Shown here: in pieces, positions 18,204 to 62,600 of the stretch | Position numbering within the stretch: position 1 is the stretch's first letter | Layout of the letters: each line of letters starts with the position of its first letter | Assembly (NCBI GenBank): GCA_044892525.1 | Contig: CM097885.1 | Location: 139,996,001 to 140,060,000, forward strand | Direction of reading: 5' to 3' | DNA length: 64,000 nt | Origin: Schmidtea polychroa | Lineage: Eukaryota | Program-made: the position numbers and the translations under genes | Notes under the pieces: model-generated | The model's database searches: none | What the model saw: only the letters and a program-made list of their open reading frames with translations | What the model was told of the DNA's origin: nothing

Positions 18204-18233
18204 CAGTGGTACCTCGATTAACGAGCTAAATTC
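18204..18233 (-). mobile_element. Terminal segment (TIR) of a Tigger/pogo element, separated from its body by insertions
   Basis: TA|CAGTGGTACCTCGATTAACGAG is a Tigger-type end; subterminal sequence resumes at 26593. Confidence 0.75.
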
Positions 18234-19088
18234 AAAAAAAAAAAAAAAAAAAAAATCAAATTTTATTTTAATCAAAACGCGGGCCATAAGGCCAAGAAGG
18301 GGAGATCGATTCTCACCCTTAAGAGTTCTGCAGCTTTTTATCAAATAATCGAAGGATATCAGAGTTATAAACTCCGATATCAGAACGTGGTTTTCCCTGA
18401 AAACTCCAGTCAGGTTTTTTGAGGGGATCCTTTCTGAAGCTCCTGGCAATTGATCATTCTCTTTTATGGTAAGCATCATTGGGCAGTGTAGGGGATAATC
18501 ATGGCTAATCATGAACATGATCAGCCATGGCCCATATAGATGCACCTGGCAATCATTCATTGGGGGTTGATTAGGAGAGGCAGAGCGAGTCCATCCTCTG
18601 TCAGGTGAGTTTCAGTTTCCGCCGGATCCAATTGATTTCTGTGGAGGTGTTCCAATCAGGTCCAATCATGTCAGGACGGATTTTCAGGTAGTAGTTTTTT
18701 GAAATGTTATTTGATTCCGCCGGATCCAATTGAATTGTGAAGATCTGGTCGGATTTCGAAGTTTTTCATATCCTCTGTCAGTTTGAGTTTCTGCTGGATC
18801 TAATTGGAGAAGAAATTCCAGTCAGGTCAGGATGGATAGTTCCAGCTTCAGTGTTATAAATGGAATGGTTCTGAAGGAAATGGTTAATTTTTTCGGAGTA
18901 GAAAGACTTCTATTGGTGATACTTGTAGCGTTGGATAATATAATATAATATAGCATATAGAATGTTAAAGGTATGAGAAAGATATAATAGAGATAGCAAG
19001 ACATTAGATAAAAAAAGGATTAACTGTCAATGGGCGGGATCCATACAAGGATCCCTACAAGTACCCAATGACAGTTGGGTAAAGAGAA

Positions 19089-20435
19089 CTAATGTCTCCT
19101 TTTATTCTTCTTTTTAACATTGTTCTTTGGTTTTTCAGGCAAGTTTATAGGATTGTCAGTTGAGTTAATAAACGTAGTAGATTGGTCTATGACATCAGGA
19201 TTTAGGTTTTCGGATAGGTGAGAGAATGCCGTGTTGACAGATGAGATAATTTTGGCAGCTAATTGTGGGTCTGGTAGTGACGAATTGCTGTCCCTGTGAC
19301 TGTGGAAGGCAGACATAATCACATCAATTTGGTTCATATGTTCAGGAGTTAGGGGTCCAGATATGCTTTGGGCTGAAGTTATCAAATTCATAATTTTATT
19401 GATCTGTATAATCGGATTCGTAGGTTTTTCAGAGTCGGAATTGGAGTTGATAACCGAATCAACAATCGTATTCATTTCGGTTATCATGTCATCAGGAGTT
19501 AGGATTTTTGGAGAGGCAGTGATTATCGGATTATCATTGTTGTCGAGGTCGGTATTGGAATTGAGGATCGGCATGATCAATTGAGTCAAGTGGTTTAAGT
19601 CAGAGGTATGATTTTTAGGTCGGTCCAGATATGAGGCTTCAGATGATTTAATGTTATCAGGTTTGAAGGCGGACTCACAGGCAGTTAAATTTGGTAATTT
19701 TGTATAATTTTCGTTAATTTTGGGTGTTGAAATGATAAGTCTAGATATTTGGTTCAGATGTTCTGCGTTTAAGGGCTCTGAAAGGTCTGCATAGGTTGAT
19801 TTGATTGAGTTCATGAGGTCATTGGCTACGTCGTTGGTCCTTGGCATGGCAATTGGATTGTCCTTGTTGAGTTGATGAATTAGCATGGATATTTGATCTA
19901 GATGCTCAGTCGTAAGGGGTTTGGATAGGTCTTGATAGTTTGAGTTGATGGAGTTTATGAGTTCCGATATAGAAGTTGGATGGTCTTCATTAAGTTGATC
20001 AGTTTCTTGGGTATTTTGGTGAATAAGTCTAGATATTTGGTTCAGATGTTCTGCGCTTAAGGGCTCTGAAAGGTCTGCATAGGTTGATTTGATTGAGTTC
20101 ATGAGGTCATTGGCTACGTCGTTGGTCCTTGGCATGGCAATTGGATTGTCCTTGTTGAGTTGATGAATAAGCATGGATAATTGATCTAGATGCACGGTCG
20201 CAAGGGGTTCGGATAGGTCTTGATAGTTTGAGTTGATGGAGTTTATGAGTTCCTATATGGAAGTTGGATGGTCTTTATTAAGTTGATCAGTTTCTTGGGT
20301 ATTTTGGTGAATAAGTCTGGGTAATTGATTCAGATCTTCAGTAGCAAGGCGTTCGTAGAGGTCTGGATTTTGGTTAGTGGGTGGCTTTTTTGGGATTGGG
20401 CTAGAGTAGTGGGGTCTTGGTTGGTTTATATAGGT
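19089..20435 (-). pseudogene. 3' part of the repeat-protein ORF (48/96-aa repeats), in frame with 25603-26585
   Basis: Removing the gypsy and one TSD gives continuous KIWKPKSYTYINQPRP...; one TAG at 20253-20255 where the sister repeat has TCG. Confidence 0.8.
19740..20316 (-). repeat. 288-bp (96-aa) tandem duplication made of two diverged 48-aa monomers
   Basis: TCTAGATATTTGGTTCAGATG recurs at 19740 and 20028. Confidence 0.9.
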
Positions 20436-20680
20436 TGTGAGGAAGATTTAATTATTAGCACAATATAATATTATAATAATAAATTACATCTGAATTATTA
20501 CTATTAAGAAATTAACATATACATATATTAAAGCATTATATTCGTATTATATTATGGCGTACATAATTATTATTGTTATTTAGAAATGCTTAATCGTCAA
20601 TTTAAGGATTTGTTTAGTCAAACCGATATTGTTATAATTTTTGAATATAATTTGAATTCGACTTCTAGTTTTATTTAACA
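20436..20680 (+). repeat. 5' LTR of gypsy element 2
   Basis: Matches 25358-25602. Confidence 0.97.
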
Positions 20681-21843
20681 TGGCGACCCTGGCAATAGTG
20701 AATAAGATGATTCCGGATGTTTACGACGGAAGACACGAAATCGAAACTTTCATTTAAGAATGTAAGCGATATTTTCAGTTATGTGGGTTAGATCAAGATA
20801 ACCAAAATATGATGATAAAATGCCTTATTTCAAGAGATATTTTACCGATTTATGAAGCCGTCGATGTCAAATTTATTAATTTTGAAGATAGACTCAGAGA
20901 AGCTTTCAAGAAGCCGTCAACACTGATAGGCGATTTTCTGAACTTATACAATTATGAGAAAGATAACGATGCAGCGCCAGTGTTTTTCGAAAAGATTGAG
21001 AAAATGGTCGACAAAGTATTGAAACACAAGTGGGATAAAAACGAATTAGTCGCTTATTTTTTGATACATTGTGTCAAAGACAAAGAAATCCAAAAAGAGA
21101 TCAAGATGCGAGATGCTTTAAAAGTCGAAGAGATCAAGGACGTAATTCGTAAAGTTGATGCTATCAACATTGAAGTTTCTAGTATTGCAGTTATGCAAAG
21201 AAAAGAAACGTTCGCAAACGTAATAAAGAAACGACAAGGATTTGCCGATATACAAGATCGACAACGCAATTTTTCAAATGTTCAAGAAAGACGAAATTTT
21301 GAACCAAGATTCAATTCTATTCCGCACGCTCAAAGCTTCGATTCTGGAAGGAATACTAATCAACAGTATTACCATAGAGACAACAGAGCAAGTGGAAGTC
21401 GCGTTGTTACATGTTGGAATTGTCAAGAACTAGGACATTCGAGTCGAGAATGCTCAAAAAAGAAGTGTTATGGATGTGGAAAAGAAGGACACATGATTAG
21501 AGAATGTAAAAATAACAAGATAAATTCAGAATTGAGATGCAACGCTTGTAAGGAATCTGGCCATCACCGGGGAGAATGTCCATCGATTTCATGCTCAGGA
21601 TGTGGAAAACGTGGTCATTTGCGGTTTCAATGTTGGGGAACAGCAGACACACGATCATCAGGAAGAAACCAATCTAGAAATTACGAGGATAACAGACGAT
21701 ATCAAGACAGATATGCCGATGGAAGAGTGGCAGCTATGGAAGACCGCGGAAACGAAGCGGAGGATTCTCAGTCTACCCGAAGTGATGGACACCCAAATGG
21801 GAGGGCTCCATCATTAGGCGAGATGATAGGAGCCATGCATTAA
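20680..21843 (+). CDS. gag: Gag with four CCHC zinc knuckles; ATG at 20680, premature TAA at 20755, open from 20758
   Basis: CWNCQELGHSSREC, CYGCGKEGHMIREC, CNACKESGHHRGEC, CSGCGKRGHLRFQC; upstream in-frame MATLAIVNKMIPDVYDG. Confidence 0.92.
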
Positions 21844-22523
21844 AAGGTAATAATGATGATTGTGTGCGGCAAGATAAGTATAGTATATTTTTTAATAATA
21901 ATAGTAATAGTAATTTAGACAGTATGTATAATTTTAAAAGTAGTAATAATAATTTAGACAGTATATCTAAATCAAATTTAAAGGTAAAAAATATTAGATT
22001 TAAATCAGATGTAATTTTAGAAGATAGTATTAAAAACGTGAAAAGTAAATTAAAAAAATATGATGTAATAAAGGAAGATAATCAGAGTAACAGTAAGATT
22101 ATATATGACGTAAGAGATAAAACTGATATTAATGATTATAATTGGATGCGTGATAAAATTAATGTAATTGAAAATAAATGTGATCAGAATTGTAAGAAGA
22201 TAATAAGTATTTGTGAGGCAAAATTAATAAATAGCAGTAAAAGGTTTGTTTATGACGAAACATTGGATAAACATATAAATAATATTTCTGTTTTAAATGA
22301 CGATTTAGAAATTGTATATGATAAGATGGGTGGAAGACCAAGCGTAATAGTTGGGATTAATAGGATTTATTTCAAACATTGTCTATTGGATACGGGGGCT
22401 AGAATGAATGTAATAGATAGCTCGATCATCAAAGAAATAGGTGAGATAGATATTAAACCTCACAATGAAGGAATTTGGTGTGCAAATGGCGTCCATTGGA
22501 AACATTTGGCAATGTTAAATTGA
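21786..22523 (+). CDS. Asn/Lys-rich spacer plus aspartic protease (-1 frame relative to gag)
   Basis: LLDTGARMNVI active-site motif. Confidence 0.88.
   Translation, partial: WTPKWEGSIIRRDDRSHALKGNNDDCVRQDKYSIFFNNNSNSNLDSMYNFKSSNNNLDSISKSNLKVKNIRFKSDVILEDSIKNVKSKLKKYDVIKEDNQSNSKIIYDVRDKTDINDYNWMRDKINVIENKCDQNCKKIISICEAKLINSSKRFVYDETLDKHINNISVLNDDLEIVYDKMGGRPSVIVGINRIYFKHCLLDTGARMNVIDSSIIKEIGEIDIKPHNEGIWCANGVHWKHLAMLN
21792..21834 (+). promoter_or_regulatory. Putative -1 ribosomal frameshift signal (gag to pro-pol)
   Basis: In-frame heptamer C CCA AAT, 5-nt spacer, then hairpin GGCTCCATCAT / ATGAT-A-GGAGCC; -1 frame open from 21786 to 22523. Confidence 0.75.
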
Positions 22524-25390
22524 AGATTCAAATCGGTAACAAAGAAGAGAATGTGATTTTTGTTGTTGTTAAAAAGGTTTCACCGTCAATTATTGGTGGG
22601 ATAGATTTACTTCGTCAATTCAACATCAAGTTAATGAAAATAAACGATAGTATAACTGAAAATACGGAAATAGAAAATAATTTTAATGAAATTTGTAATA
22701 TTGAGGCAAGATTTAGCAACTCATATAATAATGAGAAAAGATTTAGTCGAGCAATAAAATTATTTGATTTAAAAAAAGGAGATAAAATGTATCAGATAAT
22801 TAATGAAAATAAAGAAGTTTTTATGGCTGATAAATGGGACATTGGAAAAACAGATTTATTATGGCACGAAATCAAAACTACTGAGGGCCCAATTTACATG
22901 AACCCTAGACGACAACCGGCTCATTTAGAAGAAAAGATTGAGGAGGCTATAAAAAATTTGGAAGAAAATGGTATTATTAGGAAATGTGATTCGAGTTGGA
23001 ATACTCCATTGGTATGTGTTTGGAAAAAAGAAAAGAATGACATCAGATTGTGTTTGGATTTTAGAAACCTAAATAAAATAACAGAAAGACAAATATTTCC
23101 AATGCCTAATATTGAACAAATGTTAGATTCACTCAATGGATCCAAGTTTTTTAGTACTATAGATCTTGGAAGTGCATATTATCAAGTGGAGTTAACAAAT
23201 AATTCACAAGAAAAAACCGCATTTTCAACAAGGAGCGGACAGTACTGTTTTAATAGAATGCCTTTTGGAATTGCTGCGGCACCGGCTACATTTCAAAAAC
23301 TAATGAATATGGTTTTAGGAAAACTTCTGTGGAATACAGCTATTGTATATTTGGATGACATATTAATATTTTCTACAAATAAAGAAGAGCATTTTAAAAG
23401 AATAAATGAAGTATTAATGAAAATTAAGGAAGCGGGATTACGAGTAAATCCAGAAAAATGTATATTTTTAACAAATGAGACAAAATTTTTAGGCCATATA
23501 ATTAATAATGAAGGTGTGAAAGTGGATGAAAATAAAATTGAAGCAATTAAAAATTTTGTAAGACCTCAATGTTTGAAACAACTAAGAAGTTTTTTGGGGT
23601 TGTGTAATTATTATAGAAAATTTATAAAAAATTATTCAATGTTTTCACGAATATTAGAGTCTATATGTGGTACGACTAATGAAAAACTTATATGGTCAGA
23701 AAAATGTGAAGAAGCATTTGAAGAATTAAAAAATGCATTATCGAAAACACCAGTATTAATATACCCTAACTTTCAGAAAGAATTTATTTTGGACACTGAT
23801 GCAAGTTTTGACACAATTGGTGCGGTGTTATCACAGTTAGACGAACAGGGACATGAGCGAGTAATTGCATATGGTTCGCATTCAATGAATAAGCATGAAA
23901 TAGGTTATTGTATAACAAGGAAGGAGTTATTGGCCATTTATTATTTTACTCAACATTTTAAACATTATTTGTATGGGAAAAAATTTAAATTAAGAACGGA
24001 CCATAAAGCAATAACATTCATGATGGCAACAAAAAAGCCAATCACGGCACAATTCCAAACTTGGATAAATTTTCTTAGCAGTTTGGATATGGATATTTCA
24101 TTTAGAAAAGGTATGGAACATACCAATGCAGATGCATTATCCCGAGATAAGTGTGGACGATGTACTCAATGTATGGAAGTTCATGAAAATCCTAAAACAG
24201 AAAAAATGAAAACAAGACTTTTAACAATGACAGCTGTTAAGCAAGGTGTGATTTGGCAAAAGGGTAATGTTGAGATAGAAAATCAAAAAGAACTAATCAT
24301 GAAAAATGTAAAAACTAAATTTAAGATTGATGATGATGTTATCATGACAAAAGAAAATAAAATTTGGATTCCTAAAAACAATCGCGAAAAATTTATCAAA
24401 GAAATGCATAAAATCCTATGCCACGCAGGTTGCAAAAAAGTGATTGACTACATAAAAGTAAATTATGACATGGATGAATTACAAATGATAACTACAGAAA
24501 TTATTCAAAATTGTGAATTATGTCAAAAAAGAAAAACACTAACAACTAAAACAAAGGAAACTATACTAAAAACGGAAGTGTCGAAACCGTTTGAAACAAT
24601 TGCTATAGATTTTTGTGGACCTTTGAAAACAAGTGTACATGGGAAAAAGTATATTTTAGGAATTATTGATATGTGCACTCGATATATTTCTCTTACAGCA
24701 GTTTCTAAGCAAGATGAGAAAACAACAGCGGACACAATAATGAAATTTTGGATTCTAAAATACGGTTCTCCTAGGATAATTCAAGTAGATTGTGGGAAGA
24801 CATTTGAATCAGGTGTGATGAAAGAATTAGCTAAAACCCATAACATAATGCTTCAATTTTCAAGTCCATACCATCATAGTGCAAATGGATTAATAGAACG
24901 GCAATTTCGAACAATAAGAGATTTCATGAGTACCTCAATTAAAGATAGATTAAAAAGCAATTGGGTAGAGGTATTACCAGAAATTGAATTTGCTTTGAAC
25001 GCAACCGTACAAAGTACATTAGGGAAAAGTCCAGCGGAAATAGTATTTGGGTTTCGAATAACAAGAGAATGGCAAAACAAAAAGGAAGTTACTAATGACC
25101 GAATTAGAATCATTGAAGAGATACAAGAAAAGCAAAGAAATGTTAAGTACAGAAACGCAGATAGAATTAATAGAGAATTTAAAATAGATGACAACGTTTT
25201 AGTAAAGATAGACACAAGAAAAAAAGAAGATGATAGATACAGAGGACCTTTTCGAGTGATAAAAAAACTACATGATAGAAGTTACGAACTTATGGATAAA
25301 GAAGGTAAAACAATGATTCGAAATGTAGAATGGCTAAAGCCTTTTAAACAGGGGGGATGTGAGGAAGATTTAATTATTAGCACAATATAA
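22475..25390 (+). CDS. pol: Pol: RT, RNase H, integrase; separated from the protease by an apparent 1-bp deletion near 22490
   Basis: CLDFRNLN, YLDD, LDTDAS, TDHKA, HxxxxH/CxxC, IQVDCG and NGLIER motifs. Confidence 0.96.
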   Translation: MVCKWRPLETFGNVKLKIQIGNKEENVIFVVVKKVSPSIIGGIDLLRQFNIKLMKINDSITENTEIENNFNEICNIEARFSNSYNNEKRFSRAIKLFDLKKGDKMYQIINENKEVFMADKWDIGKTDLLWHEIKTTEGPIYMNPRRQPAHLEEKIEEAIKNLEENGIIRKCDSSWNTPLVCVWKKEKNDIRLCLDFRNLNKITERQIFPMPNIEQMLDSLNGSKFFSTIDLGSAYYQVELTNNSQEKTAFSTRSGQYCFNRMPFGIAAAPATFQKLMNMVLGKLLWNTAIVYLDDILIFSTNKEEHFKRINEVLMKIKEAGLRVNPEKCIFLTNETKFLGHIINNEGVKVDENKIEAIKNFVRPQCLKQLRSFLGLCNYYRKFIKNYSMFSRILESICGTTNEKLIWSEKCEEAFEELKNALSKTPVLIYPNFQKEFILDTDASFDTIGAVLSQLDEQGHERVIAYGSHSMNKHEIGYCITRKELLAIYYFTQHFKHYLYGKKFKLRTDHKAITFMMATKKPITAQFQTWINFLSSLDMDISFRKGMEHTNADALSRDKCGRCTQCMEVHENPKTEKMKTRLLTMTAVKQGVIWQKGNVEIENQKELIMKNVKTKFKIDDDVIMTKENKIWIPKNNREKFIKEMHKILCHAGCKKVIDYIKVNYDMDELQMITTEIIQNCELCQKRKTLTTKTKETILKTEVSKPFETIAIDFCGPLKTSVHGKKYILGIIDMCTRYISLTAVSKQDEKTTADTIMKFWILKYGSPRIIQVDCGKTFESGVMKELAKTHNIMLQFSSPYHHSANGLIERQFRTIRDFMSTSIKDRLKSNWVEVLPEIEFALNATVQSTLGKSPAEIVFGFRITREWQNKKEVTNDRIRIIEEIQEKQRNVKYRNADRINREFKIDDNVLVKIDTRKKEDDRYRGPFRVIKKLHDRSYELMDKEGKTMIRNVEWLKPFKQGGCEEDLIISTI

Positions 25391-25602
25391 TATTATAATA
25401 ATAAATTACATCTGAATTATTACTATTAAGAAATTAACATATACATATATTAAAGTATTATATTCGTATTATATTATGGCGTACATAATTATTATTGTTA
25501 TTTAGAAATGCTTAATCGTCAATTTAAGGATTTGTTTAGTCAAACCGATATTGTTATAATTTTTGAATATAATTTGAATTCGACTTCTAGTTTTATTTAA
25601 CA
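25358..25602 (+). repeat. 3' LTR of gypsy element 2
   Basis: Matches 20436-20680. Confidence 0.97.
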
Positions 25603-26585
25603 TAGGTGTAGGATTTCGGTTTCCATATTTTGACGGTTTGTTTTTGAGCATATTGAGGTTCGTTTGTCGGAAGTGCTGTCATCAGTAGTCGTCCGGAGGC
25701 ATGTGAGGAATAATTTGGCCGTTTAACGTTTTCTGTGAGTCGGCCGAAGGCCGGCGAGCTGCGAATGAATTTTTCGGACACGGGGCTTACGTTTGCTGTG
25801 AGTTGGCCGTAGGCCGACGAGCTGCGTATAATTTTTTCGTCCTCCAGCGGAGGACGAAAAAAATTTTTAGCGTGGTCATTGGATCTGAAATTATTGTTAG
25901 AATATTCAAACAAATTACTCCGAATTTGTTTTTTCTTTAATTTTTTACGTTTTTTATATTTAGAAATTTTAGATTTAATTATAAAATCATTAAAAAACCA
26001 ATTATCATGTTTTTTTTCAAAAAATGTATTCACGTTTTTATTTTTTAAAGCTTGTTTTTTAATAAAAATTTCATTACTTTTATTAATTTTATAGAGTATA
26101 TTTTTAAGATTAAAATTAGTATTTTCATTAAAATAATGATTTTCTTTTGAATTAGGATTTTTAGAATTAACATTTTTCTTAAAAAAAGCATGTTTTCCGA
26201 AGGAATTAATATTAAAAGAATGGGAAAAATTAAGGTAGTTTTGATCATAAGTTACGTTTGAGTGCCATATTTTTATAGCTGTTTCGAAAGCATCTAGGAA
26301 TTCAATATGCTGCTCTCGGACCAAGTTTTCAATAGTAAAACATCCAGAGATAATATTGTCGGCATATTTGAACGTATTATGGCTTATTTCCCGAATATTG
26401 GAGCCAACACAGTCCCAGCATGCTTTTCGGAGATCCTTCGACATTTCAATGGTTCCTGAAAAAAAGTTAATAAGCTGAAAAGCAATAAAAAACTCATTGA
26501 TTTCTGCTCCAGTGCTAGTGAATGTTATATGGAGTAATTCTACTAAGCTCTGGGGACTTTTACCAAAAATCTTTAGCGTGGTCAT
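25603..26585 (-). pseudogene. 5' part of the repeat-protein ORF (unknown N-terminal domain plus Asn/Lys-rich region)
   Basis: Open frame from ATG 26585 to the gypsy TSD; continues in frame at 20430. Confidence 0.75.
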
Positions 26586-26592
26586 TGGATCT

Positions 26593-27555
26593 TCCAGAAA
26601 CGTACTCCTAATTCGAACCACTCGTATATCAAAGCAAATAACTCATAGCAAATAATGGAAACCCCAATGATTCGTTCCACAACAAAATATTTATTCAAAT
26701 AAAATGTTTAATATAAAATAAAACGAATACATATAGGTGCATAAACATAAATCACACAATTAATTTGCGTTTGGAACACCGAAATCTTTTTCTTTTGTGT
26801 AACTCTAACAACGAAACTATCAAGGTACTATTGCTTATGCCTTCCCTTTATAATTTCTCAAAAATGTGACATTACATTGTCATTTAAAGGTTGACTGCTT
26901 CCACTGCCACAACTTTATTTGGGTGGTGTTTTTCCATAACATTCTGGATTGTTTCCCACATTTTAAACATGTATTTAATCTCATTTGAAGTGAGTGATCC
27001 CTCCTGCTTTTTCTCGTCTTCCTCATACGAGATCTCATCCACAAACCTTGCTGTTGCTAGCGATGCAGATCCATTAGCTCGTCGGTGGTCAGCTCCTGGC
27101 CATGTTCCTCCAACGGCTTTTCAATGTCATCCTCATTCAATTCCAGTCACTTGTTCTTCCCCAAGGAGACAATTTCATCAAGAACTGGCAGTTCCTCTTC
27201 GTGACCTAACTCCTCACAATTATCACCTAGAATGCAGTCAGGCCACAGTTTTCTCCAAGCAGAATTGAGAGTTCTCTTGGTGCCCCTATTCCAAGCTTTA
27301 TCGATGATTTTGAGACACTTCACGATGTCGGAATGATTTTTCCAGAATTCTCGGAAGATAAGATTTGTTCCTTCAGTTACCTCAAGCCTCGTTGAAATAA
27401 TGCTTTTGGTGTAAAGCTTTTTAAAGATCGAAATGACTTGCTGATCCATGGGCTGGCGTATTGAAGTGATTTTTGGAGGAAGGAACTTCATCTTAATGAA
27501 CTCGAATTCCTCCAGTAAGTCATCCTTGAGACTTGGAGGATGAGCAGGGGGATTG
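26593..27555 (-). mobile_element. Tigger/pogo body: subterminal region plus decayed DDE_1 transposase C-terminus
   Basis: PAHP..L, FLPPKITSIRQPMDQQVI and AWRKLWP motifs; Tigger-type subterminal CACTCGTATATCAAAGC...GATTCGTTCCACAAC. Confidence 0.85.
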
Positions 27556-54607: not shown

Positions 54608-57600
54608 CACACATGCTACAAGTTAGTATTCCCATCGATAGCTCATCTTAAAGTCTAGTGTAAGATCTATCTAATGATATATTATTNNNNNNNNNNNNNN
54701 NNNNNNNNNNNNNNNNNNNNNNNNNNNNNNNNNNNNNNNNNNNNNNNNNNNNNNNNNNNNNNNNNNNNNNNNNNNNNNNNNNNNNNNNNNNNNNNNNNNN
54801 NNNNNNNNNNNNNNNNNNNNNNNNNNNNNNNNNNNNNNNNNNNNNNNNNNNNNNNNNNNNNNNAATAATTTTTACATACTAAGTTATGGGGTAGAGTATT
54901 ATTATGTTTGCAGTATTCTGCCTTTACAGGAAGTTGTCAATAAGGAGCGATAATTTTACACACACATTCTATATACACATACCTTGTTTAACATGGGTGT
55001 ATATACTCATAGTTTATCCGACAAAATATTCTGTCCCCCTATGGGTATTGCTCACAAAGGTACTACTCACACTCAACATATCGCAAGGGTATATTAATTA
55101 GGGTTAGTAAATAAAACCTATCACACATACTATTTAAACTATAAAAATCAAGACAAGAGAGGACAAGGCAAAGTTTATGCATTTAGTATTGCCAGGTCTA
55201 ATGAGCAGTGACCAAATATCTGTGCCTGAAAGACACGGTGGATATTTGTTCGCGTCCACAAGGGTCGTCTGTGCCTCCCCCAAGTGGGGTCAAAAGAACC
55301 TGGGCATTATAGCTTTCCGTACGGAACATTACGCCTAGCATGGGTAGTCAACTACCAGCACATTCGAAACGTATAATTTCAAAATACATGCGTCATTGGC
55401 ACTATAACCAAATTAATTAATGTTTTCACTAACACAAATATATATTTACAGAGGCCTCCCACTAGTTGGATTACAACCGCCCACCACGACGATCAGCTTG
55501 TAAATATATATTAATTAAGGGATAAAGAGGACCCACCCAACCCTATTATATTTAATTTACAAATTTTTCTCGCTCTTCTGCTGGTAATCTATCTCAAAAT
55601 TAATCTCTCCATCGGGCCATTTGGAATACATCTTGCAAATTGGACGTATTTCTTAGTCTCTGATGCGGCGTCAACTATCATTGCTAAAATTTATATTGAT
55701 TTAAAAGCAATTAACTTACATTATCTAACATTTTATCATCACAAATTAAATTCTGGCTGACTATTAGGCAACTGTTATTTGTGGTATACTTTTCAATGTC
55801 ATTTCCCACCATAAAACACAGATACCTAAATATAATATATATATTTTAAAGAATTAATTCATGTCTTACATTAATAATAATATTCTTCAGGTAGTACTTT
55901 ACAATATCTAATTGATAAAACATCGGTTTTTTCCCATTTTTCTTGACATTCGTTGAAAGTTTACATAATTTAAGTAAACATTCATGTTGAAGGACACCCC
56001 CAATCAGCTAATTCATTTAAGAAATCCCGAACATAGCAATGTTTCACCATTTTGTCTGGTTCATTTTCTTCTATAATTCATGTTTTAATAAGAAATCTCT
56101 AAATCCAGAACATAAGTCATTTAGTGTTTCACCATTTTGTTCATCTTCTTCATAATTATATAATTCATTTTCTTCATTACTAAGTAAAATAATTAAAATA
56201 TTGTAGTAAATTCTTTATTTACTTACTTTATGGATACTAAAACGAAAGAAATAACGTTATATCAGAATTATATTTAAATAATTTAAATTTAGTTATTTAA
56301 ACATATTTAAACACTTTAGTTATTTAAGCATATTTAAACATTAATATTATTATATAGTATAATTTTATATAATTTTATATAATATTATAATATTATAATA
56401 TTATGTATTGTAAATTTAATATATCCTTAATTTAATTTTTTAAATTCAAAAATTTATAATGAAGATTCTTTGAATTAAAAAATATTCTGTTAGTATTTCC
56501 AGGCAGAAAACAACGAATTCAATAATTAAAATCTTAATTTTCATGTTGTTAGGGTTGTGGCCAGAAGTTAATCGCCATCTAATCGTTTGTTCTCAATTTC
56601 GCTCATTTTTGTTCAAAACATTCAGGTGAGTTGTTATCTGGAAAGTTTCTTTGAGCTCAGTTTTGTTAAAACACTCACGGTATTTTTGAGGGACGTGACA
56701 CTGGAAATAAATTAACAATGGGTGGTCATCCATACATGTTGTTGGTTTGAACTGTTGATTTATTTTAGAAATATGTATATTAAAAACATTTAAGGTATCA
56801 TTCAGTAAAATAATATAGTATTTTTGAGTATTTTTAGTTAATTTATAAATAACAGTATTTTGATATATCAATAAAGACCATATACACCGAGTTTATCCGA
56901 CAAAATATTCTGTCCCCCTATGGATATTGCTAGCAAGGGTACTGGTCACACTCAACATGTCGCAATATTAATCATTTAGAAATTCTTAGGTAAGATAATC
57001 AGAAATTTGTGAATATTTTAAATGTAACTTTACACTTATGTCGAGCGACTAATTTATTGGTTAACTTTGTAGTCATTTAAAGCAAAAATTAATTTATTCA
57101 TCTAATGTTCGTTACAATAGATAATAATATGAGAAAAACATGGTCATTATTCATTGATAATTTTAAATTCTTTATCATTTGGAGTAAATTTGTTTGAGGC
57201 AAAAATATTTAAAGGAGTCATAATAGAAATATGGTTATCATTTAACCAAATAAGGTGCTTATTAGTTAAAAATATATATTTATATAGGGTTACAATTCTT
57301 TTCTAATTTAATTAGATGATCATTAGACGTAATATATCTTTGCGAGAAATTTAAGATGTTTGAGTAACCAAAACATTGATATTTTGGGTCATCAATTTAT
57401 GAATAGTGCTTAATTTTCTCATTTTTAGTGATTTAAAATAATATTTAGCAAAGGTAATTTAGCAAAATATCATTTATCCATCCGATAATAATATTCCTTC
57501 AATAGATTAACTGATATTCAACCGATTTAATTTCTAATTAAAATCATAAAATTCCTTCAATAAAGATCAATTTTCTTTAACCGTTGTCGATTTCCAACTT

Positions 57601-58947
57601 TTAAGTCAATATTTCTCAAGTTTTGTCACTGATGTCCCCACAATGAATAAAATAACTTCTTAAGTAAAATAATTTAAAGCAATAACCTTTGATATCAATC
57701 CCAATTAATTCTAAAGATTTCAAATATTTCATTGTGAAAACCAAGTAAATTGATCATTAACCCTAAACGACTTAATAAAACAGTGGATAATTAATATAAA
57801 ACTGGTTCTAAAACATAAATCTAAATTACTGTGCAATAACATTCATCACAACCTAATAAACCTCTAAAACGATATAATTTCACAGGAACTATTATTAATT
57901 CATAGCTAAATACTGACTATTTCCCTTTAAAATTTACCAATAAGAACATTGTCGATTTAAATAGAGATTTTAAACATTTCCACCAAATATTTCTATCATT
58001 TTAAACACCTTAAAAATCATATATTACCATCTTAACCAACCGACTTTAATATATCAGACCTTTAATATATCAATTCTCTTAAAATCCATAGAAAATTCTT
58101 CAAAATATGAATTTTATTTATTTGTTACAGACATCCTTCCATTGAAATAATTTAGTATCTAAATTCAAAGAGTCCACTAAAAGATCAAAATTTACTAAAA
58201 TCAATATTTTCTACAAATATTTCACCACATTTACCATCAAATACCTAACTAGAAATGAAATATATCGATTGATCATAATTCTTCATCGATTCAGCTAATT
58301 ATATAGCAATTATAACGTGATATATCTTTCAAAATCACAAATTTCAGTATATTTTACAATAATTTTTACAAAAATTAAATAATAATAACTTGATTATTGT
58401 AAAAACTCTAATTATTAACCTAACTGTCATTAAAAATATTATTATTTAAAAGTAAATTTAAAAACAAGTCAATAAAATATAGCAAATTATCAAGAAATTA
58501 ATTAAATTTGTCTTAGAATTAACACTAAAACGTTAAATTTCAAAATATTCTTTCAATTATTCACAAAAAGGTTAGTAATAATGTTAGTAAAATCCCGCTA
58601 ACTCTAAAAATTACCAACGAATTTAATGCTAAATAATAACCAAAAATTTGCCTAAATAAAACACACCAATACCTTTACGACCAGTACCCTTACGAGCAGT
58701 ACCAATTGTGAACAGTACCCATAGAGGGAGAAAATATCTTGTCGGATAAACTCAGAGTATATATAATAAAACGAATTAACAATAACTCCATCAAATTGAA
58801 TCAGTCAAATTAACACAAATTTTGATAAAAAATCTTATTCTAAAATGGTAAGAAGCGTAAAGTCGAAAGATAATTTTAATAGCACCGAGATAAATTAATA
58901 ATATTATTCTCAGGTGGTAAGAATCTTCATTAAAGTTAGGAAATTAT
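54608..58947 (+). repeat. Left arm of a large inverted repeat (may extend further left)
   Basis: Reverse complement of 59642-64000; identical ORFs 54904-55101/63489-63686 and 56593-56871/61719-61997. Confidence 0.95.
56885..58757. mobile_element. TA-flanked, TIR-bounded 1.87-kb module with non-transposase cargo (Tc1-like ends)
   Basis: TA|CACCGAGTTTATCCGACAAAATATTC ... AAAATATCTTGTCGGATAAACTCAGAG|TA. Confidence 0.6.
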
Positions 58948-59641: not shown

Positions 59642-62600
59642 ATAATTTCTTAACTTTAATGAAGATTCTTACCACCTGAGAATAATATTGTTAATTTATC
59701 TCGGTGCTATTAAAATTATCTTTCGACTTTACGCTTCTTACCATTTTAGAATAAGATTTTTTATCAAAATTTGTGTTAATTTGACTGATTCAATTTGATG
59801 GAGTTATTATTAATTCGTTTTATTATATATACTCTGAGTTTATCCGACAAGATATTTTCTCAATCTATGGGTACTGTTCACAATTGGTACTGCTCGTAAG
59901 GGTACTGGTCGTAAAGGTATTGGTGTGTTTTATTTAGGCAAATTTTTGGTTATTATTTAGCATTAAATTCGTTGGTAATTTTTAGAGTTAGCGGGATTTT
60001 ACTAACATTATTACTAACCTTTTTGTGAATAATTGAAAGAATATTTTGAAATTTAACGTTTTAGTGTTAATTCTAAGACAAATTTAATTAATTTCTTGAT
60101 AATTTGCTATATTTTATTGACTTGTTTTTAAATTTACTTTTAAATAATAATATTTTTAATGACAGTTAGGTTAATAATTAGAGTTTTTACAATAATCAAG
60201 TTATTATTATTTAATTTTTGTAAAAATTATTGTAAAATATACTGAAATTTGTGATTTTGAAAGATATATCACGTTATAATTGCTATATAATTAGCTGAAT
60301 CGATGAAGAATTATGATCAATCGATATATTTCATTTCTAGTTAGGTATTTGATGGTAAATGTGGTGAAATATTTGTAGAAAATATTGATTTTAGTAAATT
60401 TTGATTTTTTTAATGGGCTCTTTGAATTTAGATACTAAATTATTTCAATGGAAGGATGTCTGTAACAAATAAATAAAATTCATATTTTGAAGAATTTTCT
60501 ATGGATTTTAAGAGAATTGATATATTAAAGGTCTGATATATTAAAGTCGGTTGGTTAAGATGGTAATATATGATTTTTAAGGTGTTTAAAATGATAGAAA
60601 TATTTGGTGGAAATGTTTAAAATCTCTATTTAAATCGACAATGTTCTTATTGGTAAATTTTAAAGGGAAATAGTCAGTATTTAGCTATGAATTAATAATA
60701 GTTCCTGTGAAATTATATCGTTTTAGAGGTTTATTAGGTTGTGATGAATGTTATTGCACAGTAATTTAGATTTATGTTTTAGAACCAGTTTTATATTAAT
60801 TATCCACTGTTTTATTAAGTCGTTTAGGGTTAATGATCAATTTACTTGGTTTTCACAATGAAATATTTGAAATCTTTAGAATTAATTGGGATTGATATCA
60901 AAGGTTATTGCTTTAAATTATTTTACTTAAGAAGTTATTTTATTCATTGTGGGGACATCAGTGACAAAACTTGAGAAATATTGACTTAAAAGTTGGAAAT
61001 CGACAACGGTTAAAGAAAATTGATCTTTATTGAAGGAATTTTATGATTTTAATTAGAAATTAAATCGGTTGAATATCAGTTAATCTATTGAAGGAATATT
61101 ATTATCGGATGGATAAATGATATTTTGCTAAATTACCTTTGCTAAATATTATTTTAAATCACTAAAAATGAGAAAATTAAGCACTATTCATAAATTGATG
61201 ACCCAAAATATCAATGTTTTGGTTACTCAAACATCTTAAATTTCTCGCAAAGATATATTACGTCTAATGATCATCTAATTAAATTAGAAAAGAATTGTAA
61301 CCCTATATAAATATATATTTTTAACTAATAAGCACCTTATTTGGTTAAATGATAACCATATTTCTATTATGACTCCTTTAAATATTTTTGCCTCAAACAA
61401 ATTTACTCCAAATGATAAAGAATTTAAAATTATCAATGAATAATGACCATGTTTTTCTCATATTATTATCTATTGTAACGAACATTAGATGAATAAATTA
61501 ATTTTTGCTTTAAATGACTACAAAGTTAACCAATAAATTAGTCGCTCGACATAAGTGTAAAGTTACATTTAAAATATTCACAAATTTCTGATTATCTTAC
61601 CTAAGAATTTCTAAATGATTAATATTGCGACATGTTGAGTGTGACCAGTACCCTTGCTAGCAATATCCATAGGGGGACAGAATATTTTGTCGGATAAACT
61701 CGGTGTATATGGTCTTTATTGATATATCAAAATACTGTTATTTATAAATTAACTAAAAATACTCAAAAATACTATATTATTTTACTGAATGATACCTTAA
61801 ATGTTTTTAATATACATATTTCTAAAATAAATCAACAGTTCAAACCAACAACATGTATGGATGACCACCCATTGTTAATTTATTTCCAGTGTCACGTCCC
61901 TCAAAAATACCGTGAGTGTTTTAACAAAACTGAGCTCAAAGAAACTTTCCAGATAACAACTCACCTGAATGTTTTGAACAAAAATGAGCGAAATTGAGAA
62001 CAAACGATTAGATGGCGATTAACTTCTGGCCACAACCCTAACAACATGAAAATTAAGATATTAATTATTGAATTCGTTGTTTTCTGCCTGGAAATACTAA
62101 CAGAATATTTTTTAATTCAAAGAATCTTCATTATAAATTTTTGAATTTAAAAAATTAAATTAAGGATATATTAAATTTACAATACATAATATTATAATAT
62201 TATAATATTATATAAAATTATATAAAATTATACTATATAATAATATTAATGTTTAAATATGCTTAAATAACTAAAGTGTTTAAATATGTTTAAATAACTA
62301 AATTTAAATTATTTAAATATAATTCTGATATAACGTTATTTCTTTCGTTTTAGTATCCATAAAGTAAGTAAATAAAGAATTTACTACAATATTTTAATTA
62401 TTTTACTTAGTAATGAAGAAAATGAATTATATAATTATGAAGAAGATGAACAAAATGGTGAAACACTAAATGACTTATGTTCTGGATTTAGAGATTTCTT
62501 ATTAAAACATGAATTATAGAAGAAAATGAACCAGACAAAATGGTGAAACATTGCTATGTTCGGGATTTCTTAAATGAATTAGCTGATTGGGGGTGTCCTT

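Follow-up and report, generated by a model that had tools for sequence, protein, structure and literature searches.

We analysed a 64,000-nt stretch of the Schmidtea polychroa genome (the window, to which all coordinates below refer), in which the segment 18234-26592 is a copy of a mobile element whose coding strand is the minus strand. The element is recently mobile, coding and dependent on R5/LIN retrotransposons. It forms a multicopy, protein-coding family without reverse transcriptase (RT); its poly(T) 3' end and its target in the 28S ribosomal RNA gene are those of R5/LIN elements (NeSL clade), and it is probably copied in trans by their RT and endonuclease. A sequence-only reading of the window had left the unit unclassified, a label that is now superseded. 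Its suggestion of a HeT-A-like unit that carries only the first open reading frame (ORF1) and is mobilised by a long interspersed element (LINE) agrees with a multicopy family that has a selected ORF and shares its 3' end with autonomous partners. We can say with considerable confidence that the best class for the unit is a non-autonomous LINE with ORF1 present, of the HAL1/HeT-A/Ag-Sponge kind.

Dispersed copies, shared tails and the 28S target

DNA searches of assembly G000 (781 Mb; loci are given as L-numbers) gave 49 and 56 matches, with 40 candidates scored in each. A search with the N-terminal protein sequence gave at least 150 matches, 150 of its 218 candidates having been scored. Exact matches to a pattern of 29 nt at the 5' end numbered 97. 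The copies measure 2-4.6 kb and are dispersed with differing flanks, their 5' end being constant to within about 0-24 nt; groups of near-identical RT-less copies occur at different flanks. For the site of L021, contigs from all four sequencing runs include an element-free joined form, with no shared letters at the joint. Pieces of related copies occur in run X1, which may be an RNA run; this speaks neither for nor against expression. We examined 97 loci for the 5' module of the family and for ORF2, the RT-encoding frame. No ORF2 match lay inside any of the 82 module-bearing locus-strands (60 of them with both ends), and the module had no match among 20 ORF2-bearing loci. A Pfam scan of two family ORFs found no RT, endonuclease, DDE, tyrosine recombinase (YR) or Rep family, in agreement with what had been read from the window by eye. 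The sequence-only reading had named two outcomes that would count against it, an RT or endonuclease frame in other copies and a single-copy unit; neither was found. Some insertions are nearly coincident within another repeat, in the pairs L028 and L041, L033 and L043, and L045 and L050, which are different copies or subfamilies; L033 and L043 sit after the 28S-like leader of an RT-encoding element.

The sequence-only reading had also proposed a search for autonomous partners sharing the last ~100 nt, and such partners exist. A 21-nt tail motif occurs exactly 567 times in G000 (control, 0). Around the first-listed tail matches on C1 we sampled 40 loci, skipping a few that were clustered or previously collected, and found 51 upstream ORFs, of which 47 were scanned together with one ORF neighbouring ribosomal DNA (rDNA). 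A same-strand RVT_1 ORF ran to the tail at 10 ends in 9 of the 40 loci; four further tail ends had zf-RVT only and one an Ulp1 protease match, and none of the 47 ORFs upstream of shared tails matched a Rep or YR family. L142, L144, L148 and L151, which were among further loci picked for partial 3' matches, carry a full ORF2 and are 79-87% identical to L021 over the last ~340 nt, as they are to the same part of the window copy. Other subfamilies reach 98% tail identity to such helpers over 120 nt, and overall the sequence common to element and partners spans the last 120-390 nt. The closest PDB matches to the L151 ORF2 are R2 proteins (E 1e-45), and seven helper loci have an in-frame TGA as the link between ORF1 and ORF2. 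The LIN9_SM site of the same 28S gene holds a different element with RT and restriction-like endonuclease (REL), in antisense orientation (L074:2-1480, L132:4341-8915); TGA-CTA, a leaky stop context, stands between its two ORFs.

The window copy ends in a tail of 22 T (18234-18255, minus strand), where reverse transcription would start. Tail length ranges from 7 to 28 T across 38 copies. The terminal signal in common with the helpers (18256-18318, minus) contains stem-loops at 18299-18318 and 18282-18293 and the motif AAAATAAAATTTGA, which the sequence-only reading had noted; some copies have an AATACA variant. These 38 copies retain both ends, and 30 of them lack a target-site duplication (TSD). 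Four others have chance-level matches of 5-6 nt and one has 8 nt; the last three carry long duplications, roughly 34, 96 and 144 bp in length.

L066 and L074 lie antisense within 28S rRNA genes, at a target that is matched in G000 by 804 empty sites and 16 filled ones. Fifteen of the filled sites were examined: six hold RT-less module copies, three full ORF2 elements and four 5'-truncated pieces, and two fit none of these categories. The truncated pieces are about 0.1-0.65 kb long with a constant T end. The published junctions of LIN24_SM and LIN26_SM show poly(T) ends at the same 28S position (S6 Fig of PMC4640811, from the part of that paper compared), where LIN is grouped with R5 inside the NeSL clade. 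Therefore the polarity is fixed, with the T tail as the 3' end, and the tail and the lack of a TSD are lineage traits of R5/LIN (NeSL) elements; they are not new, because the published junctions already display both. The window copy itself is an off-target insertion outside rDNA.

Judging from sequence comparison, the subfamilies bear tails that match different helper families, evidently through swaps. A tree built from the final 140 nt (28 copies without RT, 17 with ORF2) had both kinds intermixed, and well-supported branches forced at least five label changes. Of 25 such copies, 22 had the anchor motif and entered a tree of the 5' end, which conflicted with tail type in places. L064 and L065 illustrate this at the level of single copies: they are 99% identical in the first 700 nt and 60% in the last 300 nt, the tail of L064 being closest to helper L081 (85% over 310 nt) and that of L065 to L105 and L091 (94% over 150-160 nt). 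The last ~480 nt of the RT-encoding copies L082-L085 and L102, their 3' untranslated region (UTR), hold a remnant of the coding repeat of the RT-less family, suggesting that sequence has flowed from passenger to helper as well.

The coding region and its 5' module

The ORF1-like frame of 774 codons occupies 19089-26585 (minus), interrupted in the window copy by a nested gypsy element and one TAG. It begins at an ATG at nt 8 of the 5' terminus (26565-26592, minus). About residues 11-29 are translated from a captured antisense piece of the 28S rDNA adjoining the target site (26498-26553, minus), which matches the empty sites L179, L180 and L182 in 53 of 57 columns and the other rDNA type in fewer. 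The segment is read in the ORF frame, and helpers have a similar translated leader. Two diverged 28S types are present among L179-L184; the captured segment is closer to the ACATCGTG type, and the insertion at L163 is in the other one.

The next segment, codons 31-118 (26232-26495, minus), is predicted to be all-helical. The comparisons indicate that this N-terminal domain is under purifying selection, with dN/dS about 0.25. Pairwise dN/dS was below 0.5 in 39 of 45 pairs, which are not independent of one another; three disjoint pairs gave a pooled pN/pS of 0.25 (Fisher p 3e-8). Third codon positions were the most variable (0.39, against 0.23 and 0.19), and the same bias is present, in weaker form, at the C-terminus. 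The ORF frame was the only one free of stops, the copies having been picked as stop-free in that frame. Low dN/dS is kept between RT-less subfamilies that have reached dS above 1.

No homologue of this domain was detected. Residues 1-135 gave nothing above the Pfam cut-offs and a best score of 0.83, at chance level, against Atlas; in a search of 5.8 billion sequences, 0 of 60 candidates, all 425-1355 aa long, matched. A profile search of 1.84 billion representatives returned one bacterial-looking repeat protein (E 7e-4), which we judged spurious. The AlphaFold model of the N-terminal region is all helical and uninformative (pLDDT 50), and Foldseek found no match to it at E up to 0.001. Downstream of the domain, the element and helper ORF1 have two short motifs and a hairpin cluster in common, likewise ordered, and basic stretches near residues 200-250 carry a net charge of +10 to +14 per 50 residues. 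The RT-less element lacks ORF2 entirely, as well as the Cys/His-rich end of helper ORF1. Further on, tandem repeats of 288 nt (2 x 144 nt; 19735-20339, minus) encode acidic helical repeats that vary between subfamilies.

The 5' module of about 700 nt ends in an internal copy of the 28 terminal nucleotides (25859-25886, minus). Internal and terminal copies were the identical variant in 29 of 30 elements scored. The internal copy stands directly ahead of a 14-bp hairpin (25832-25862), which together with GGCC-NNN-GGCC hairpins at 25803-25817 and 25740-25754 makes up the cluster in common with helper ORF1 (25740-25862, minus); helpers L121 and L151 have a like arrangement with motifs of their own. 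L073 and five rDNA copies have the module twice in tandem, and in these five rDNA copies the upstream partial module meets the 28S gene via a captured 28S segment.

Several further observations concern the hairpins. In the window (25740-25817) and across L021-L178, the loop of GGCC-NNN-GGCC was T-N-C in 69 of 84 pattern matches, with variation in the encoded residue (Y/S/F/C); the main hairpin loop was TTC in 27 of 43 and its reverse complement GAA in four. G-N-A is an unusually stable DNA triloop. Since T-N-C loops read as G-N-A on the cDNA strand, the hairpins may be active in cDNA. Internal deletions or truncations in L028, L030, L033, L051 and L054 start at the tip of the main hairpin (about nt 750-770), where contigs of run X2 showed further joints. 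A search of L021 with Rfam gave no ribozyme match at E up to 1, a result with which a divergent ribozyme remains compatible.

The window copy and its surroundings

As the sequence-only reading had placed it, the unit is embedded in the end of a Tigger/pogo element, whose terminus is at 18204-18233 (plus strand) and whose subterminal sequence resumes at 26593-26900 (plus; 32 matches in G000). A pattern search of the window for a second Tigger end gave no match. The intact Tigger end was recovered by pattern in two of seven loci (L135 and L139), and in L135 it reads AATTC-GT-TCCGG. Compared with this empty end, the window copy has no TSD, as had been claimed, and therefore 1-2 nt were lost at its insertion.

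A young gypsy element is nested in the unit (20436-25602, plus) with a TAGGT TSD; its long terminal repeats (LTRs; 20436-20680 and 25358-25602) are 245 bp each and differ at one position. Without it the host unit measures 3187 bp and has one long frame with a single stop ahead of the terminal one, a TAG at 20253-20255 (minus). L021 is an uninterrupted copy, 98% identical to the window copy, with a stop-free ORF of 774 aa. The earlier estimates of ~3.2 kb, ~774 codons and one TAG thus held, and so did that of an ~850-bp 3' region followed by 22 T, the 3' UTR (18256-19088, minus) being 833 nt long with the tail additional. Programmed readthrough of the TAG was considered and rejected because L021 has no stop there.

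In the gypsy, the protease region (21786-22523) and the RT-integrase ORF (22469-25390) are in different frames, and the gag has several CCHC knuckles. Elsewhere in the window, tandem repeats form mirror-image pairs (56288-56422 with 62168-62319, and 58665-58703 with 59886-59924), hinting at a multi-kb palindrome.

Proposed mechanism, alternatives and known systems

We propose that transcription starts from the 5' module and translation from the ATG at nt 8. The helper ORF2 protein would recognise the common 3' stem-loops and tail, as the shared sequence suggests, and target-primed reverse transcription, with chemistry like that of R2-type elements, would then set out from the poly(T) end, either on target in 28S rDNA or at an off-target site. 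The polarity of this step is clear because the T end is fixed and the 5' truncation variable at the 28S site. Second-strand resolution would proceed mostly without TSD and occasionally with a long one, these being the outcomes observed. By tail exchange the lineage could outlive the turnover of its helpers; mosaic copies are seen, and template switching may produce them. The protein would act as does the ORF1 of HAL1 or HeT-A, binding its own RNA in cis through the basic segments and joining the helper ribonucleoprotein. By analogy this is the likeliest role, with about an even chance of being the right one.

Several observations weigh against this account. The placement of the helper RT in the R5/LIN branch is putative, the indirect signs being R2 proteins as best PDB matches and the Ulp1 match. 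The nearest helper tail found for the window subfamily is only 87-88% identical, so no present helper was identified among the elements compared. Most copies, the window copy included, are outside rDNA, and four of the six RT-less copies in rDNA are near-identical, lie on small contigs and may represent one event or assembly duplicates. Six of the 45 pairs had dN/dS of at least 0.5, and for the pair L036-L058 purifying selection was not significant. Between the N-terminal domain and the ORF1 of helpers no similarity was seen (best E 0.39 in hmmsearch; hhalign probability 0.3%), and the ORF1 motifs in common are weak (E 2e-4 to 0.9); the term ORF1-derived therefore stands on the hairpin and on short motifs with their order. 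Nor did either program support a resemblance, noticed by eye, of this domain to the helical segment ahead of the helper hairpin. The module copies examined are part of at least 150 matches, and another copy could carry an RT.

This last point also favours the view that the copies arose repeatedly, as dead ends, by internal deletion from an autonomous LIN that has the same 5' module in its full-length, unsampled form, since the 82 examined come from that larger set. The helpers do have a like architecture, with a 28S-derived leader, a terminal motif repeated ahead of the hairpin and a tail, and internal deletions do start at the hairpin in many copies. The element is nevertheless not a simple deletion of LIN, because none of the 82 carries ORF2. 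Near-identical RT-less copies at different flanks, the 20 ORF2-bearing loci without a module match and the RT-less subfamilies diverged to dS above 1 at low dN/dS all argue in the same direction, making this view very unlikely. The DNA-passenger explanation, dependent on a Helentron or a tyrosine recombinase, which the sequence-only reading had also entertained, is hardly tenable. Hairpins with 3-nt loops, an internally repeated terminal motif and mostly absent TSDs would suit it, but the tails are those of RT/REL elements, the 28S site is the same, 5'-truncated pieces keep their T end fixed and long TSDs occur in 3 of 38 copies; tail, target and truncation fit R5/LIN elements. Readings as a Penelope pLTR, as DIRS/Ngaro or as a solo LTR were abandoned after the helpers had been found.

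A doubtful but serious contender concerns the protein, which in an R5/LIN satellite could be an antagonist or adaptor diverting helper ORF2 from helper RNA, or could counter host silencing. The selected domain occurs neither in the helpers nor in public libraries and has been kept through tail swaps, as this would predict; basic stretches and an ORF1-like position, on the other hand, suit plain RNA binding. A broader version, which we regard as rather improbable, takes the family for an old, self-maintaining parasite lineage with its own domain, the N-terminus of which derives from the captured antisense 28S sequence, as a dedicated hijacking adaptor, using several helper RT/endonuclease families via tail swaps. 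If true, this would be a satellite-helper system within R2-group elements and not a truncated LINE.

Returning to the favoured reading of an R5/LIN-dependent, ORF1-bearing element, the closest known systems are LIN26_SM and LIN24_SM of Schmidtea mediterranea, which are likewise antisense at the same 28S position, with variable poly(T) and many off-target copies (PMC4640811); LIN26_SM ends in aaaataaaatttagt ahead of the T run. They differ in being classified by their RT, which the element lacks, and in the ~60 nt that precede the tail. The element is not an autonomous NeSL-clade member, which would have RT and endonuclease; neither was found by Pfam, and ORF2 was absent from the module-bearing copies. 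The part of PMC4640811 compared describes no RT-less ORF-bearing LIN, and our literature search found no such NeSL/LIN element, although Repbase or the R5 paper may contain one.

HAL1 (L1), HeT-A (Jockey) and Ag-Sponge (CR1) come from APE-type clades. Like the element, they keep one ORF, have no RT and carry the 3' end of an autonomous LINE (PMC5786205; PMC5753468, as far as compared). The element differs by its REL-bearing, site-specific clade and by a domain without detectable homology to helper ORF1. In the portions compared, ORF1-retaining non-autonomous elements are listed for Jockey, L1 and CR1 only (PMC5786205), and tail exchange is described for SINEs (PMC5786205; PMC5753468). The R2 SIDE and R2/R1 SIDE of Drosophila, from what was compared of PMC3414825, are also non-autonomous, 28S-targeted and mobilised by their 3' end, with a hybrid of 5' part and foreign tail. 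They are short, consisting of a 5' HDV-like ribozyme and a 3' end, whereas the element is a coding unit of 2-4.6 kb with a selected ORF.

The family is a natural set of cargo RNAs from which one could learn which 120-340 nt of 3' sequence must be present for an R5/LIN enzyme to work in trans, and the specificity of each helper, which is relevant to site-specific gene insertion using R2-type enzymes. R2-group elements mostly have a single ORF, and an RT-less element with an ORF under selection, in a clade that targets rDNA, widens the ORF1-retaining strategy beyond Jockey, L1 and CR1. Set against the published work compared, the tail, the target and the TSD pattern are already known; the selected orphan domain and the tail swapping are what that work leaves unaccounted for.

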